Positions 26,151-34,299 of a stretch of 64,000 bases of DNA are shown piece by piece. The notes beneath the pieces were generated by a model. It did not search any database, had not been told where the DNA came from, and saw only the letters and a program-made list of their open reading frames with translations. Each line of letters opens with the position of its first letter. Position 1 is the stretch's first letter. Source of the stretch: Candidatus Latescibacterota bacterium. GTDB lineage: Bacteria; Latescibacterota; UBA2968. The position numbers and the translations under genes are program-made. The stretch is from the NCBI GenBank assembly GCA_965198115.1, contig OZ240241.1, forward strand, positions 2,144,001-2,208,000, in the 5' to 3' direction.

Positions 26151-26501
26151 TCAATCACTCAGCCCTGCGATCGCTTCCGCCTCCGATTCATAAATCGTGG
26201 ATGCCTTAAGCAACCCCATAATGCGGAAAGTTTTCCCGATCGTCGGCGTCACACAGCAGAATCCGACCTTGCCATTCAGCCCTTTCACCTTCTCGATAAC
26301 TTCGATCAGGATGGAGATGCCGATACTGTTGATGATTCGGGACTGTTCCAGGTTCAACAGGATGCGAGTGACTCCGTCGTCCACCATAGTATTGCAGGCT
26401 TCAGCGACCTTCTCCGCCCCAATGTTGTTGATGTAGCCATCCGTCACGACGATGCCGACGTCACCCTCCTGTCGAGTCTGAACAGCCAAGCCCTCCGCCA
26501 T
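26151..26501 (-). CDS. STAS-domain anti-sigma factor antagonist (RsbV/SpoIIAA-like)
   Basis: GYIN, ILLNL..IINSIGIS phosphoacceptor motif, FRIMGL. Confidence 0.88.
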   Translation of the reverse strand: MAEGLAVQTRQEGDVGIVVTDGYINNIGAEKVAEACNTMVDDGVTRILLNLEQSRIINSIGISILIEVIEKVKGLNGKVGFCCVTPTIGKTFRIMGLLKASTIYESEAEAIAGLSD

Positions 26502-26514
26502 CGTAAGCCCCTTA

Positions 26515-28430
26515 GGGTTTGCCACGAAATAAGTGCTGCACTTTTCAAGGTAATGATCTTACGCTCGGAGTGTGGACGTCGAAACTCTCCGAACGAAGTA
26601 TGAAGCCTTGGCTCCGGTGCTGACGGAACGCACGCGTCGTCTGTGGGCCGCCACGGAAGCCGAAGCGTTGGGTCACGGTGGGATCGCGATTGTGGCTCTG
26701 GCGACAGGAATGTCCAGAGAGCGGATCTTTCGTGGCATTCAGGAGTTGAGGTCGGACGAACCTTTGGACCCGGCTCGCATCCGGCGTCCAGGCGGCGGTC
26801 GTAAGCGGAAGGCCGACACGGACCCGACGCTGTGGCAGGACCTGAATGATCTGGTCGAGCCAACGACTGCGGGGTCGCCTGACGACAATCCTCTGAGATG
26901 GACATCGAAGAGCACTCGCAAACTGGCCGCCGAGTTGCAAGCGATGGGGCATTCGGTGAGCCCCAGGATCGTTGCCAATCTCCTGCACGAACACGATTAC
27001 ACGCTGCAGGCGAATCGGAAGACAAGGGAGGGATCTGCACACCCGGAGGGACGCTCAGTTCGTTTACCTCGATGATCGGATTAGCCAGCAGCAGCAGCAG
27101 GGCCTTCCCGTTATCTCGGTGGACACCAAGAAGAAAGAGTTGATCGGCGACTTCAAGAATCCTGGCCGAGAATGGCGACCCAAGGGAGACCCGGAGCGTG
27201 TGAAGGTACACGATTTCATAGTACCTGCTCAGGGCAAGGCGATCCCTTATGGAGTGTATGATCTGAGCCGTGATGAAGGCTGGGTAAGTGTCGGTATCGA
27301 TCACGACACGGCCAGCTTCGCCGTGAATGCGATCCGAAGTTGGTGGAAGAACATGGGACGGCCCGCCTACGGCACTTCGACGCATCTGCTAATCACGGCG
27401 GACGCAGGCGGCAGCAACGGCGCCAAGACGCGGCTGTGGAAGTGGGAGCTGCAGCGCTTTGCGAATCGCACTGGCCTGACGATCACCGTATGCCACTACC
27501 CTCCTGGCACTAGTAAGTGGAACAAGATCGAACATCGCCTGTTCTCCTTCATCGCTATGAACTGGCGAGGCAAGCCCCTGGTCAGCCTGGCTGCAACCGT
27601 GAATCTCATTGCCGGAACGACCACTCAAGCCGGTCTCCGAGTACGCTCCGAGATCGACAAGCGACCCTACCCTAACGGGGTCAAGGTGACCGATGAACAG
27701 ATGACCCAAATCGATCTCACTCCGCACGATTTCCACGGCGACTGGAACTACACGATCCGGCCAATGGCTCAACATTGAGATCGACCGTTTATTTATGGCT
27801 CTATCCGGGTTTCTCAACGGTGAAACTATAGAATGACAAGGTCATAGATCGTTCCCTACGCTTGGTTGTGTGTGTAGGACAATCAAAGCGAAGGGGGTGC
27901 GACCTATGACCGGGAGCAGATTACTATCGAAACTGCTGAGATTCAAGGGGTTCCGTGTTGTCAGCTGGTGGTTTGAGGAGGCGAACTACCGAATCTATAG
28001 AGCCTGGAGACTCAAGGACGAGTTCGAGCAGTTCTGGGAATACAAAGCGCCCTGGGCTGCCGAACGCTTCCTGAAATGCTGGACGACGTCCGCACTCAGA
28101 AGTCGACTTGAACCCCTGCGAAAGTTCGTCAGGACCCTGCGACAGCACTTCTTCGGCGTCCTCGCATTCGTGAACACGCGTCTTACCAACGCCATCGCCG
28201 AAGGCCTCAACCGAATCGTCCAAATCGTCAAGAACCGAGCCAGCGGATTCCGCACACTCGACGCATTCAACGATATGATCTTCCTTACCGTCGGAGACAT
28301 AAACATCCCTGAGCAGATTCCGAAGAGGTTCCGCACACTCTAACCGCGCCCCCATGCCAGGAACCACGGCACCTTCACCCACTTCATCTCGTTGAGAGAT
28401 CCGGATATAGCCTTTTTTATTCGCGAACCC
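26515..28430 (+). mobile_element. ISAzo13-family element; transposase 26572-27778 frameshifted at ~27050; ISL3 inserted in its right IR
   Basis: ISVDTKKKE, ADAGGSN, TSKWNKIEHRLFS; IRs GGGTT.GC.A..AAATAA; 3-bp TSD TTA. Confidence 0.9.
27797..28412 (+). mobile_element. ISL3 copy 3, internally deleted (616 bp; 804-bp in-frame deletion)
   Basis: Both IRs intact; WWFE joined to EANYR; TSD TTATTTAT/TTTTTTAT. Confidence 0.93.
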
Positions 28431-29531
28431 TTAACGGTTCTTTACCATCGTAATCGAGGTGCCAGCGGATCCCGACTCGATTCTGACCTCATCCATCAAC
28501 TCTTCCATAATGCGTAGGCCCCAACCTCGTTTGCTTTCCCCCGACGCTCGACGCTCTTCAACGGCTTTCTTCGCGACTGTAGGATCGAATCCCTCCCCCG
28601 AATCCGCAATCTGGATCGTCAGTGCATCTTCCCCGATCTCGAAATTGATGCGCACTTTCCGATCCTTGCTCTGACTGTGTTCGAACGAGTTGATACACGC
28701 CTCGATGATAGGCAGTTTGATCTCTTCGGTCTTGTCCCGGTCCAGTTCCATGAACGTCGCCACCGCTTCGGCCGTTTTCGTCGCGGCGAGTTCCATTTCG
28801 GGCAGCATCGGAATCGACAGATCGACGCTCGGACTGGTTTCTTTTTCACTCACGGCAGTCCTGGACCTCTTGTGTTTGCCCTCTCCGACAACCCAATGAG
28901 TCTGGATGTTTCCAACCCCGGCGAGCCTGCGCCAACCTGCATCTTCGAACGAGAACCGATCGGCGACAGCCAGTTCGATCGAATCGTCCACCAGGATCTG
29001 TCCCGCCGGCGCCCCATCACACAGACGCGCGGCCTGAACGACCGCGGGACCGATGCAAGTGTATTCCATCCGGCGAATCGAGCCCACGTTTCCCGCGACG
29101 ACACGTCCCCTGGACATCCCGAACGCGAGAGGAACAGGCTCGGGTTTCCTGCGGTTGAAGCGGGCGACCTCATCGCGCATTGCAACCGCCGTCCGCACCG
29201 CACGAACCGTGTCGTCCGCCTGGCTCAGGGGGGCTCCGTAGACGACCATGAACCCGTCGCCCATGTATTTATCCAGCGTCCCGCCGTTCTCAAATATAAG
29301 CTCGTTCAAGCGCGTAAAGCAATCGTTCAGCAGCGATACCATCTCCTCTGCACCGATACGCGTCAGTAAATTCGTCGATTTCCGAATGTCTGCACACAAC
29401 ACCGTGACATCGCGTTCTTCGCCTCCGAGCGAAAGCATCCCATCCCCCTCGACCATCGCGTCGACGACCTGATCGCTGACATACGCCTTGAACATCGACC
29501 GCAAGCGCATCTCCTCCGACAAGTCCTCTAG
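28431..29531 (-). pseudogene. Class III nucleotidyl cyclase fused to RsbW-type anti-sigma kinase (HATPase_c_2), 5'-truncated by IS1380
   Basis: ADIRKST, DKYMGDG and YTCIG..AARL, then EACINSFEH, DSGEGFD and GWGL..LMDEV in one frame. Confidence 0.82.
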
Positions 29532-29551
29532 CCTGAATTATGCATAAAAAG

Positions 29552-30971
29552 GGCTCTATCCGGGTTTCTCAACGGTGAAACTATAGAATGACAAGGTCAT
29601 AGATCGTTCCCTACGCTTGGTTGTGTGTGTAGGACAATCAAAGCGAAGGGGGTGCGACCTATGACCGGGAGCAGATTACTATCGAAACTGCTGAGATTCA
29701 AGGGGTTCCGTGTTGTCAGCTGGTGGTTTGAGGGGAGAAGCTGTTTCGTCATCGCCGTAAAGCCACATAAGAATGGTTGTTGTTGTCTGGAGTGCGGCCG
29801 TCGAGGTAAAATCGTCCGCACAATGCCCCATCCGCGTCGGTGGCGTGACATTCCGGTGTGCGGGTGGAGGGTCTGGCTTCTCTACCATCCTCGGGAGATT
29901 CGGTGTCCTACCCACGGTCGTGTGGTCGAGGAGATTCCGTGGGCGGAGCGGTTCTCTCGGGTGACGTATCGCTTCGAGTATGCCATGCTGCGCTACTGCC
30001 AGACCATGACGCAGAAGGCGGCGTCCGAGTTACTGCGCATCTCTGCCTCGACGCTGTCGGATCTCCTTCACCGATCCATCACGCGGCTTCGTGAAGGTCA
30101 TCGTATCCGAGGGCTCAAAACCATCGGGATCGACGAGATCTCCTACGCCAAGCGTCACAGGTACGCCACGCTCGTTTACGATCTGGACCGCTCCTGCGTG
30201 GTGTGGGTTGGCCGCGGCAGGGCGCGTAAAACGATCGATCGGTTCTTCACAGAGGCTCTCAGTCCCTACCAGAGATCCAAGATCGAGTGGGCCTGCTGCG
30301 ACATGAGCGAAGCTTACATCGGAGCCATCCAGGAACACTGTCCGAATGCCAAGCTGGTCCTCGATCGCTTTCACATCGTCAAGGCTCTCAATGCCGCCGT
30401 TGACGAGGTCCGTAAGGACCAGTGGCGTAAAGCTGCCCCGGATGAGCGCAAAGCCATGAAGGGCCTCCGATGGCTCCTCTACCGGCACTCAGCGACACGC
30501 TCCAGAGGGGATACTCGGACACTCAAAGCACTGGAGAAGGCGAACTACCGAATCTATAGAGCCTGGAGACTCAAGGACGAGTTCGAGCAGTTCTGGGAAT
30601 ACAAAGCGCCCTGGGCTGCCGAACGCTTCCTGAAATGCTGGACGACGTCCGCACTCAGAAGTCGACTTGAACCCCTGCGAAAGTTCGTCAGGACCCTGCG
30701 ACAGCACTTCTTCGGCGTCCTCGCATTCGTGAACACGCGTCTTACCAACGCCATCGCCGAAGGCCTCAACCGAATCGTCCAAATCGTCAAGAACCGAGCC
30801 AGCGGATTCCGCACACTCGACGCATTCAACGATATGATCTTCCTTACCGTCGGAGACATAAACATCCCTGAGCAGATTCCGAAGAGGTTCCGCACACGCT
30901 AACCGCGCCCCCATGCCAGGAACCACGGCACCTTCACCCACTTCATCTCGTTGAGAGATCCGGATATAGCC
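29552..30971 (+). mobile_element. ISL3 copy 4 (1420 bp, transposase 29625-30902)
   Basis: TSD ATAAAAAG, 20 bp inside the IS1380 left end. Confidence 0.95.
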
Positions 30972-31682
30972 ATAAAAAGGTAGTCCCCTTGTACAAGTGT
31001 TTGTTTTTCCCTACATTAGGGCTGACACATCAAAACAACACTTGGAAGGAACTACCGTGATAGAACCTAGTCAGATCCGGTTACCATTCGCAAGCATTTC
31101 GGGCAAGGTAGTTGAGGCTGATTTTGCCGGTGGCGCCGTCAGGAGTGACGGTGGAGTTCTGTTGCTTCGCGCCCTTGAGTCTCAGATGGGATTGATCGCC
31201 AGAATGGTAGATGCTTTGCGAGATCGTCGTCACCCAAGCTATATCGATCACACGCTTTTGGATCTTGTGAAGCAGCGTGTTTTTCAGATCGCTTGCGGCT
31301 ATGAAGATGCCGTCGATTGTGATGATTTGCGCCACGATCCGGGCGTCAAGGCTGCCTGCGATCGGCTTCCTCTTTCCGGTCCTGATCTCGGGAGCCAATC
31401 AACGATGACACGACTTGAGAATGATGTGCGACGCTCGGATTTGTATCGGCTCGCACGGGCTTTTGTAGACGGGTTCATCGCATCGTATGACCAGGCACCC
31501 CCAAGCATCATTCTCGATATCGACGACACGGATGACCCAACGCACGGTGCGCAACAATTTTCACTCTTCAACGCGTATTACAATGAACACTGCTATATGC
31601 CGCTACATATCTATGAAGGCCAAAGCGGCAAGCTCATTACGACGATCTTGAGACCCGGGCATCCGACGAACGGTAAACAGGT

Positions 31683-33056
31683 GAGCTATAATCAAAAGGT
31701 GTGGAAAAAGAGAAAGGGCGACCCTACCCTTCCCGTGAGATAGTTGATTCACACAAAACCGGGTGAGAGGCCCGGTTGGGAAGGAGGATCGCCGTGAAGG
31801 AACATACGCATAGAGCCCCATTGAAGTCCATGCCGACGTGGGAGACGGTTGACGATTGGATCCGTGAAGAGATCCAGGGCCGGTTCCAGTCCATTCTGGA
31901 GGAGGAGGCGACCGCGTTCTTGGGCCGGTCGTGGTATGAGCGCCGAGCCGAGGTCGATAGCTCCAGGGGCTACAGGAACGGCTACGGCAAGCCCCGGCGT
32001 CTCTCGACGAGCTGCGGAACGATCAAGATCCGGCGTCCCCGGGTTCGTGGTCTGGAAGAGCGGTTTGAAAGCCGCATCCTCCCCCTGTTCGCCCGGAGAA
32101 CCAGGGCCATTGGAGATCTGCTTCCCGACCTTTATCTCCACGGTCTCTCCCAGGGCGACTTCGAGTTGTCTTTGCGTGCGCTGCTCGGTGATGGCGCGCC
32201 GCTTTCGCCGACCTCGATCGCTCGTCTTCGAGGGAAGTGGGAGGTCGACTTCCAGGACTGGAAAGAAAGGCGTCTGGATAATCGCGAACTGGTCTACGCC
32301 TGGGCTGATGGCATCTACGTCAAAGCCGGGCTCGAGCGCGAGAAGGCGTGTCTGCTGGTCGTGATCGGCGCGATGAGCGACGGCAGCAAGGAGATCCTGG
32401 CGATAGAACCCGGTTATCGAGAGTCTACAGAATCCTGGCTCACGGTGCTCCGGGATCTCCGGGATCGCGGGCTCGAACATCCTGTCCTGATCGCCGCGGA
32501 CGGGAATATGGGCATCTGGGCGGCCGTTGATCAGGTCTGGCCAGAGAGCCGGCAACAACGGTGCTGGAACCACAAGATCCTCAACGTGCTCGACAAGGTC
32601 GCCAAGCGTGCACAGGCTGAAGCCCGCGCACTGCTCGTCCAGATCCCCTATGCCGGCACGAAAAAGGAGGCCGAGAAGCTCCGGAAACGCTTTGCCGCAC
32701 GGTATCGCTCACAGTTCCCTGCCGCCGTGGAGACGCTCGAAAGAAACTGGGATCGGATGGTCACGTTCTACGACTTCCCGAAGGAACACTGGAAACACCT
32801 GAGAACCACGAACGTCGTCGAGAGCCCCTTTGCTTCCGTTCGGCTTCGCACAAACGCCGCCAGGCGATTCAAGAAAGTCAGGAACGCCACGGCTCTCATC
32901 TGGCGTACGCTCAAGGTCGCAGAGAGCCGATTCAGGAAACTCACCGCGCCACACTTGCTACAACAAGTCTACGATCAGAAACACTCAACCGAACCGCAGG
33001 TCGAAGCCGGGAAGATGGCCGCCTGATTTCTTTTACACACCTATTGACCTGAGCTC
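31683..33056 (+). mobile_element. IS256-family element A copy 2 (1374 bp, transposase to 33026)
   Basis: IRs GAGCT..AGGTGTG.AAAA; TSD AAACAGGT inside the IS1380 transposase. Confidence 0.94.
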
Positions 33057-33969
33057 AAACAGGTCGTTTCTATTCTCAAGCGCTTGGTGGAACACCTACG
33101 CGGATCTTGGCCAAACGTGGAGATCATCGTTCGCGCAGACTCAAAGTTCAGCTCACCAGAGATGCACGATTTCTGCGAAGACAACGGTATCTACTACGTT
33201 CTGGGCCAGGGCGCCAACTCCAAGCTCAAAGCGGCTGGACAAAACCTGATGGACCAAGCGCTACGTCTGAGCGAGCATAAGGAGACGATTCGCTTGTTCT
33301 CATCCTTCTCATATCAGGCTGGCACCTACCGGCAGCCTCGCCGGATCATTCACAAGGCTGAAGTCACAAACGGCGAAGCAAATCCAAGATACCGCGTGAC
33401 CAATTTACAGAGTAATCGAGACGGCTTTATCTATGATCGTATCTACTGCGCAAGGGGACGCACGGAAGGCTTCATCAAGGACCACAAAACATTCCTTCAC
33501 TCCGATCGAACATCGTGCCACAAGTTTGAAGCCAACCAGTTCCGACTCTTTCTACACAGTGCTGCATACGCCTTGCTTCACGCACTCCGATCACAGGGAC
33601 TCAAGGGCACCGCGTGGACCAAACCTCAGGTCAACACGATACAGAACCGTTTCCTCAAAATCGGCGCGAGAGTCATTGAAAGCGCACGAAGAATCCGATT
33701 CCATTTTCCAACATCGTATCCACTCAAAAACGTCTTGGTGTCAATCATCACCAGGCTCGAAACGAACACGCAGTAACAACGCCGATCTATACCGGGGACA
33801 GCTATGTACACGTCGCAAAACAACACCTGTTCCGGACGAAAATCGTGACTCTTGCGACTCGTAGAGACCGCTTACGGGACCTTGGACATCCGAAGAAGCC
33901 GAGAACAAATCCTGTGCGTGATCACATCACTCCAAAACAACCTAAACTCAAATTCATGCATGATTCAGG

Positions 33970-34299
33970 CTAAAGTTCGCACTCCTTCTCGTGACCATCC
34001 TCTTCATTTCGAAAGCGATGACCGAAACGATGGGAGTCCAGGGCTTACTTCTGACGGCCGGCATTGCCGGGCTCGGGGATGCGAGTGCTCTGACCATCTC
34101 CGCAGCCCGTCTGACAGAAACATCCGCCATCGGTATGGAGCAGGCAGTCTGGGCGATCTGGTTGGCCATCGCAGCAAACGCACTCGCCAAGTGGATCCTC
34201 GCCGTCACACGAGGTGGTAAGCCACTTGCTTTCTGGCTCGTCGGCGGATTTCTCACCATGCTCGGCGTAGGCATCGGCCTGACACTTTTACTCATCTGA
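33970..34299 (+). pseudogene. 3' fragment of a DUF4010/MgtC-SapB-like membrane protein
   Basis: LKFALLL..GIAGLGDASALTIS..AIAANALAK; begins at the IS1380 end with no start. Confidence 0.65.

Follow-up and report, generated by a model that had tools for sequence, protein, structure and literature searches.

The stretch of DNA analysed here (the window) is 64,000 nucleotides long and comes from a Candidatus Latescibacterota bacterium (GenBank assembly GCA_965198115.1, contig OZ240241.1, positions 2,144,001 to 2,208,000; the genome is called G000 below). On its minus strand it holds the 3' half of a gene for a class III nucleotide cyclase fused to an RsbW-type switch kinase and, downstream, a gene for a STAS protein; one insertion sequence (IS) separates the two genes and another has cut the fused gene (Table 1). 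The frame from 29531 to 28431 comprises 366 open codons, the first residues being LEDLSEE, and Pfam places both a Guanylate_cyc domain (E 6e-24) and a HATPase_c_2 domain (E 1.5e-22) within it. A first-pass annotation, made from the sequence alone, had described a PAS-exit-like linker, a class III cyclase and a complete GHKL kinase in this one frame, and both Pfam and our residue check agree with it.

The cyclase residues named in that annotation were all called correctly. Numbered from the first residue (L1), the domain has the two metal-binding Asp (D48 and D92), the ATP-specifying K88 and T158, and the Arg of the transition-state pair (R169), the Asn of which is replaced by Val (V165, in AVVQAAR). 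PF00211 scores above its cut-off, and among the 50 homologs described below both Asp are kept in all 50 and the Lys in 44. The Lys of the KG motif has a phosphate-binding role; it is Ala here, a second change at a conserved position, found solely in the window copy and in homolog P0001. The PDB sequences nearest to a family profile of the cyclase are 6fht, 2w01 and 3r5g. In the kinase domain the N-box Glu, Asn and His, the G1 Asp and the RGWG motif are intact, and the domain matches the RsbW structure 6m36 with an E value of 9e-21. The linker between the two domains (residues 221-232) is disordered in the predicted model. An internal GTG with a Shine-Dalgarno (SD) sequence had been noted near 28853; it lies in frame, and the SD-like sequence upstream of it scores -6.8 kcal/mol, against a background median of -3.1 and a 5th percentile of -6.3.

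Pfam finds the STAS domain in the open reading frame (ORF) 26154-26501(-). Its NSIG motif, singled out earlier as a phospho-Ser site, is present, and S59 aligns with the DSS of SpoIIAA and is invariant in all 28 rows of the STAS alignment (A3). ISAzo13 stands between kinase and STAS gene, and the TTA on its right-hand side supplies, on the minus strand, the stop codon of the kinase. Without the element the flanks read TAA-GGGGCTTACG-ATG, which confirms the join given by the first-pass annotation. A gap of 10 nt is compatible with the translational coupling deduced from this join but is no proof of it; the corresponding gap in relatives is about 15-70 nt.

The fused gene had also been called a 5'-truncated copy. 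The 5' part is indeed absent from the locus, but the gene was cut by IS1380 rather than simply truncated, and its 5' half (GAF-GAF-PAS) lies elsewhere in the genome, at G000:1474344-1475690(-), about 700 kb away in the assembly. It was found through the translated flanks of all IS1380 copies in the genome, followed by tblastn with homologs; the flank at G000:1474344(-) ends ...ILGVVVAL when translated, and a simple 5' deletion is thereby ruled out. The two halves are in frame (299 + 365 open codons), and their 4-nt overlap, TTAG/CTAG, contains a mismatch that recurs at five other IS1380 copies. Since the right flank of the window's IS1380 is a remnant of an unrelated DUF4010 gene, the two flanks do not belong together; the other half of the DUF4010 gene is at 3.009 Mb. 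The displaced 5' half and the DUF4010 halves therefore mean that three IS1380 sites exchanged flanks, by recombination or assembly misjoin. These sites are same-orientation IS1380 copies at G000:1471285-1474344, 2173532-2177969 and 3009355-3012362. Contigs from X1 and X2, two runs of one sample that may be the source, cross 28391-29573 and 28391-29561 with zero differences, and both IS junctions are spanned by one contig each in X1 and X2; next to none of the gene is present in run X3. Upstream of the 5' half are a Gfo/Idh/MocA gene, a second STAS gene and a second kinase gene; the second kinase and the first GAF each appear to be short of one G in a G run, where contigs match the assembly. 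As a full-length protein the window copy is very likely non-functional, and the operon in this genome is a relic.

The IS load of the genome is very high. About 70 near-full ISAzo13 copies share the start end, mostly after TTA or TAA; there are about 40 IS1380 copies, and ISL3 occurs repeatedly in the A-rich ends of both. The ISAzo13 copy of the window lacks 2 nt at position 27047 compared with the collapsed contig of the other copies, which gives a transposase frameshift. The 4-mers flanking IS1380 copies are centred on CTAG and are identical on the two sides of an element in 15 of 34 pairs; differing pairs often vary at one outer base (TTAG/CTAG, CTAA/CTAG), a pattern that we take to resemble donor-carried, piggyBac-like CTAG ends inserted into imperfect targets.

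Table 1. Features of the window around the cyclase-kinase gene (window positions)
Feature	Position	Strand	Basis and remarks
3' half of GAF-GAF-PAS-class III cyclase-RsbW-type kinase gene (PAS exit helix, cyclase, linker, kinase)	28431..29531	-	Severed from 5' half by IS1380
Class III cyclase domain	28887..29414	-	PF00211; Asn to Val at codon 29037-29039; KG Lys to Ala
RsbW/SpoIIAB-type GHKL kinase domain	28434..28829	-	PF13581, alignment A2, PDB 6m36; N, G1 and G2 boxes intact
In-frame GTG with SD-like sequence, 9 codons before kinase core	28851..28853	-	Might be an active internal start or a relic
STAS anti-anti-sigma-type protein, 116 aa, predicted phospho-acceptor S59 (NSIG)	26151..26501	-	PF01740, alignment A3, SpoIIAA match
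ISAzo13 at kinase stop codon	26515..28430	+	PF07592; TTA duplicated at 26512-26514 and 28431-28433
ISL3 copy with an internal deletion, inside the right end of ISAzo13	27797..28412	+	Repeats D1, D2, I2, I3, I5
IS1380 interrupting the gene; carries full ISL3 (~29553-30970) and transposase ORF 31776-33026(-), presumably IS256-like	29532..33969	+	PF13701, PF01610, ends
3' remnant of unrelated DUF4010 gene	33970..34299	+	PF13194; rejoins in frame with G000:3009355 flank

The fused family and its catalytic asparagine

Full-length fused proteins number 50, the top 50 among the best 120 of 228 matches in a search of longer proteins. They are 642-886 aa long, cover 99-100% of the query at 42-91% identity and carry both domains behind GAF and PAS, in the order GAF(-GAF)-PAS-cyclase-kinase. 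Named records with the fusion bear the labels of Ca. Latescibacterota and of an uncultured Gemmatimonadetes bin. In a quick tree, from which L118, L136, the upstream cyclase of L171 and three quarters of the "other" cyclases were left out, the fused cyclases form one branch (Shimodaira-Hasegawa-like approximate likelihood ratio test 98) beside the unfused cyclases of the module described below (93). The genome-contig pattern scan, with at least two fused matches, gave 18 module loci and is biased towards cyclases; the metagenome pattern scan gave 8 loci, two of which (L094 and L097) have no module domain.

In an intact operon (L134; L102 and L152 are similar) the order of genes is oxidoreductase, STAS, second kinase, fusion, STAS and a convergent propeller-PP2C. 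A STAS gene lies directly downstream in 7 of 11 fused loci of the window's own phylum (two are cut by contig ends), and the STAS gene is in this sense the syntenic partner of the fusion, in line with the earlier proposal. Of 12 fused loci, 7 have kept an ATG or GTG, with an SD of -5.8 kcal/mol or better, at a distance of 7-11 codons from the start of the kinase core, and the other five have no good internal start; Met is not significantly enriched in the linker (21 of 50, with 36% expected by chance). The fusion probably arose by read-through, and the fused gene may still yield free kinase from an internal start.

Other fusions of the kinase also exist, namely REC-cyclase-kinase, HD-kinase, PP2C-kinase and ATPase-kinase (28 long matches among the 150 listed, which are 50% representatives). 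In P0156, P0157, P0180, P0189, P0190 and P0192 (about 580-830 aa) related kinases follow an AAA_16/ATPase_2-type domain, and 13 Acidobacteriota genomes have long kinase fusions of a size like the P0156 type, none of them with the DKExR-type GAF domain introduced below. Directly upstream of the intact fusion in L152 is a kinase-clade protein (L152:3098-3790) with a degenerate N-box (EACLYTFQK) and no G1 Asp, which on these residues is likely a pseudo-kinase.

The catalytic Asn is kept in all 20 unfused module cyclases and all 66 other cyclases and is absent from 22 of 54 fused ones; L118 (a cut copy of a fused gene), L099 (a frameshifted fusion), the upstream cyclase of L171 (unrelated) and L136 (partial) were left out of this count. 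All 22 Asn-less domains have both Asp, the Thr and the Arg, and 20 have the Lys. The quick tree implies six changes, at least four of them forced by well-supported branches. Whether the loss is conserved had been raised as a check by the first-pass annotation; 30 of the 50 homologs keep the Asn, and its loss is rejected as a trait of the family. Because Rv1900c is active without this Asn (PMC4886424; this and the other papers cited here are drawn on in excerpt), the Asn-less fused domains are candidates for weak or non-catalytic cyclases and are not proven dead. Judged by its residues, an Asn-less domain such as that of the window probably has weak cyclase activity or serves as a regulatory domain that binds ATP.

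Unfused relatives and a shared GAF subfamily

The kinase and STAS proteins form clades with a mean column identity of 54% each. Marinisomatota and Bacteroidota have unfused kinase-STAS-GAF-PAS-cyclase operons, in most cases with a Reg_prop/Y_Y_Y/SpoIIE phosphatase next to them, and the kinase/STAS clade is also found unfused in Acidobacteriota. Of 168 genomes from the window's phylum, 17 contain the kinase clade, and kinase-only searches detected it in 9 of 251 Marinisomatota, 4 of 401 Bacteroidota (at least 175 bits) and 52 of 301 Acidobacteriota (13 being long fusions). Across 64 kinase-clade loci, for which the Acidobacteriota neighbourhoods tallied were 11 wide loci out of the 52 genomes with matches, a STAS gene lies within 3.5 kb in 55, a PP2C gene within 7 kb in 43 and a cyclase gene within 4.5 kb in 31, and a sigma factor gene is present in 3; G846 (L212) was left out of all counts. 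Around kinase-seeded matches a cyclase is adjacent in 5 of 9 Marinisomatota loci and in 3 of the 4 top Bacteroidota loci. The neighbouring PP2C is typically a beta-propeller membrane sensor, and a propeller-PP2C is found in the window's genome at 2891328-2894288. The first-pass annotation had set this system against switches paired with PP2C phosphatases, as if the cyclase took the place of the PP2C; since a PP2C is usually present and the cyclase is an extra part, that contrast is wrong. Kinase, STAS protein and PP2C are co-encoded with a nucleotide cyclase, the arrangement expected of a partner switch that gates a cyclase.

Genes for cyclic nucleotide monophosphate (cNMP)-binding proteins stand beside module genes in six loci, and there are 22 cNMP-binding matches in G000; as annotated, these genes fit a cyclic AMP (cAMP) output. 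Four such proteins are encoded next to kinase/STAS genes or a fusion gene (L103:8198-9370, L135:8955-9953, L137:2208-3125 and L142:5713-6561), one of them fused to a PP2C and one to a REC domain, and a cAMP feedback arm is possible. Three Bacteroidota module cyclases (L026, L041 and L051; 6.1-8.3 kb) end in an HD domain, not a kinase.

The GAF domain adjoining PAS is common to the module cyclases, a GGDEF protein (L027), PP2Cs and sigma-54 activators of Acidobacteriota, and His kinases of the window's own phylum. A GGDEF effector was seen in L027 only; the cyclase is otherwise of class III and not a diguanylate cyclase. In an alignment of 44 rows covering the five effector types, E137 and F145 are invariant and D135, K136 and R139 are conserved in at least 90%. 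The DKE-R-G residues sit in a protruding beta-hairpin of the predicted model (predicted local distance difference test 92), and mean column conservation is 0.67 for this DKExR hairpin and 0.20 for the pocket lid, the pocket region being the least conserved part. Of the genomes with a high-scoring GAF, 15 of 16 in the own phylum also have the kinase clade (G100, with its interrupted fused kinase, included), as do 6 of 6 in Marinisomatota (where the next score is 79 as against 185 bits) and 37 of 38 in Acidobacteriota (without G846). Many of the Acidobacteriota GAF genomes were absent from the training alignment, and there the GAF lies 1-2.5 kb from the kinase. No close solved GAF was found, Foldseek against the PDB giving generic GAF matches at 10-23% identity. 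The module GAF region of L006:5627-7663 has a weak match, far below the cut-off, to NCBIfam NF041606 (diguanylate cyclase DgcA; E 5e-11). From these sequence patterns we infer that the DKExR GAF would be the domain on which one of the switch proteins docks.

Proposed mechanism and competing explanations

The reading that we favour, at a probability of about 0.5, is that the intact relatives form a partner switch with an enzyme output rather than a sigma factor, in which STAS phosphorylation would gate effectors by docking on the DKExR GAF. The kinase, fused or unfused, would phosphorylate S59 of the STAS protein, and the membrane beta-propeller PP2Cs would strip this phosphate. In one phosphorylation state the STAS protein would dock on the GAF/coiled-coil stalk of a dimeric effector and switch it; where the effector is the cyclase, the output would be cAMP. 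By fusion the kinase would have become physically joined to its own output, and the cyclases of several fused branches, the window's included, would later have lost the transition-state Asn while keeping the metal, adenine and Arg contacts. Each step is based on homology, co-occurrence and the precedent of SiaC, HsbA and BgrV (PMC8457831). Two inferences of the first-pass annotation, that STAS state gates the cyclase or that a degenerate cyclase senses nucleotide for the kinase, are both still live; the first is closest to what we favour, and the fused family and the syntenic STAS are established.

Several points weigh against this reading. All of its support is genomic, and the genomes are related and partly incomplete, so that kin are not independent. 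In the own phylum the co-occurrence of GAF and kinase is partly trivial because the two are in one gene, and the same co-occurrence would fit the kinase, not the STAS protein, as GAF partner, as in the RsbT/MtT type. In this GAF the NKFDE motif of cNMP-binding GAFs (PMC4411481) survives as a D-K-F-D/E variant, and this is compatible with a ligand role. An adjacent STAS gene is missing from 4 of the 11 own-phylum fused loci, and G000 has no PP2C beside either half, its PP2C being unlinked. Three of 9 Marinisomatota genomes and 3 own-phylum genomes have the kinase/STAS pair but lack the GAF, and other outputs must therefore exist. In four genomes an RpoS-like sigma gene is directly upstream of the fused gene. 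Loss of the Asn, finally, need not abolish activity, as Rv1900c illustrates (PMC4886424).

More tentatively, and as something we hold to be short of an even chance, the GAF subfamily would have given up small-molecule sensing and would read STAS phosphorylation, serving five outputs (cAMP, cyclic di-GMP, Ser dephosphorylation, sigma-54 activation and His phosphorylation) across five phyla or more. A single lineage would have fused the kinase to the cyclase, which would then have repeatedly decayed to a nucleotide-binding pseudo-enzyme, an output enzyme turned input domain.

The least improbable of the alternatives, which we nonetheless consider unlikely, is that the kinase itself docks on the DKExR GAF by the logic of RsbT-RsbU and MtT-MtG: unphosphorylated STAS protein would sequester the kinase, the freed kinase would switch the effector, and the fusion would make this intramolecular. 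The GAF/kinase co-occurrence fits it equally, the protein lacking the N-box Asn and G1 Asp has been kept upstream of one fusion, and free kinase would come from the internal starts that 7 of 12 fused loci have kept. The linker Met frequency barely exceeds chance, though, a STAS-type protein is the binder in 3 of 4 described cyclase cases (PMC8457831), and the second STAS paralog, found beside a different kinase, keeps the same invariant surface residues.

Just behind it, and likewise improbable for the family as a whole, comes a reverse flow of information, in which GAF/PAS and a weak or dead cyclase would detect a nucleotide, either ATP or, as in CyaB1/2, cAMP, and adjust the activity of the fused kinase, phospho-STAS acting elsewhere. 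The Asn has been lost at least four and probably six times, in fused proteins only, while nucleotide and metal contacts and kinase motifs stay; the branch of the window copy and P0001 is also without the KG Lys, a cNMP-PP2C follows the STAS gene in L103, and the GAF-GAF-PAS-cyclase layout matches that of CyaB2 (PMC4411481). Such a flow leaves unexplained both the unfused operons with intact cyclases and the linkage of GAF to kinase/STAS in lineages without a cyclase there; moreover, the GAF pocket is the least conserved region, the CyaB2 GAF is a weak match (E 1e-4, rank 21) and the cyclase-kinase linker is modelled as disordered. Reverse flow may be most likely in Asn-less branches such as the window's, with STAS gating being the favoured reading for the rest.

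Less probable again is a classical switch, with the kinase domain as an anti-sigma factor for an RpoS-like sigma and the cyclase as a co-regulated passenger. L136, L139, L148 and L220 each have, 0.6-0.8 kb upstream of the fused gene and in the same orientation, a short gene for an RpoD/RpoS-like sigma factor, G000 has 32 sigma-70 region-2 matches, and the kinase-domain proteins HsbR and CrsR regulate RpoS (PMC6482189). Sigma genes are nevertheless confined to 3 of the 64 tallied loci plus L220, all four in one family (f4), and occur in 0 of 42 loci outside the own phylum (with a sigma profile from G000 only, and some loci cut short); no sigma gene was found at either half in G000. Kinase and STAS fall below the RsbW, SpoIIAB and anti-anti-sigma cut-offs, and the dedicated GAF is left unexplained. 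The sigma-70 gene stands between a REC-sigma-54 activator and the fusion (L136:5396-6367, L139:9999-10874, L148:5812-6738 and L220:5261-6148), and a GAF-sigma-54 activator follows in three of the four.

The first-pass annotation's refuting scenario, a lost stop codon or sequence error of G000 alone, might draw on the common unfused versions, the SD and GTG before the kinase, the IS-ridden genome and the frameshifts in the same operon, but it fails and is ruled out by 50 fused homologs from several sequence sources that form one clade, by contigs identical to the window and by the lack of a good internal start in 5 of 12 fused loci.

Relation to known systems and wider meaning

Partner switches gating diguanylate cyclases have already been described (PMC8457831). 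The first-pass annotation gave no characterised example of the switch it inferred; our literature search, with subscription papers mostly outside its scope, returned no paper on an adenylate cyclase gated by a partner switch or on a cyclase-RsbW fusion, but for diguanylate cyclases such gating is known. A term search of PMC2447327, PMC8256260 and bioRxiv 10.64898/2026.04.08.717354 yielded nothing relevant. SiaABCD of Pseudomonas aeruginosa also combines a PP2C, a switch kinase, a STAS-like protein and a nucleotide cyclase in an operon without a sigma factor, partner phosphorylation gating the cyclase (PMC8457831, PMC7647112). As described in those excerpts it differs in its c-di-GMP output (GGDEF), in SiaC, a DUF1987 protein with Thr68 that binds a bare stalk, and in the absence of fusion, whereas the window family has a class III cyclase, a PF01740 STAS protein with Ser59, a GAF-PAS input and a cyclase-kinase fusion. 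BgrU/V/W-BgrR of Sinorhizobium meliloti and HsbR/HsbA-HsbD of P. aeruginosa have true RsbU/RsbV/RsbW-type parts, and STAS phosphorylation state modulates the cyclase (PMC8457831, PMC7647112, PMC6482189); the excerpts give diguanylate cyclases and no class III cyclase for them, and HsbR is a kinase fused to a PP2C that also regulates RpoS. The RsbT-RsbU N-terminal module, including Moorella MtT/MtG, resembles the present system in that one N-terminal domain is swapped among effectors of the PP2C, GGDEF and His-kinase types and is linked to a set of switch kinase and STAS proteins (PMC12143880, PMC7647112). Here, in contrast, the swapped domain is a GAF subfamily, no stressosome (RsbR) genes were seen, and the effectors include adenylate cyclase and sigma-54 activators.

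The Bacillus switches RsbU/RsbV/RsbW-sigmaB and SpoIIE/SpoIIAA/SpoIIAB-sigmaF share the kinase and STAS folds and the phospho-Ser position. In the window family, however, no SigB/SigF-type sigma is nearby, the ELDHH of SpoIIAA reads GYINN and the FAR position of SpoIIAB reads LAA. The kinase scores 64 bits where the RsbW equivalog cut-off is 145, and 56 where that of SpoIIAB is 135, and no NCBIfam family except the PAS domain scores above cut-off for the fused protein. Anabaena CyaB1/CyaB2 have a similar tandem GAF-PAS-class III cyclase layout (PMC4411481); no C-terminal switch kinase is described for them in that excerpt, their GAF is weakly similar, and the pocket-lid region is poorly conserved in the window family.

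To these systems the present analysis adds the fused family, its repeated and fusion-specific loss of Asn, the effector-swapping GAF subfamily and the subset linked to RpoS. The N-terminal GAF, which lies outside the 3' half in the window, is the most informative part, and all the parts are small or soluble and amenable to in vitro work. With activities as predicted, the unfused active, fused active and fused Asn-less proteins are a natural series leading from an enzyme to a regulatory pseudo-enzyme. If our favoured reading is true, the GAF would be a protein-docking module swappable between effectors, and control of cAMP in abundant uncultured lineages would include a route through Ser phosphorylation.

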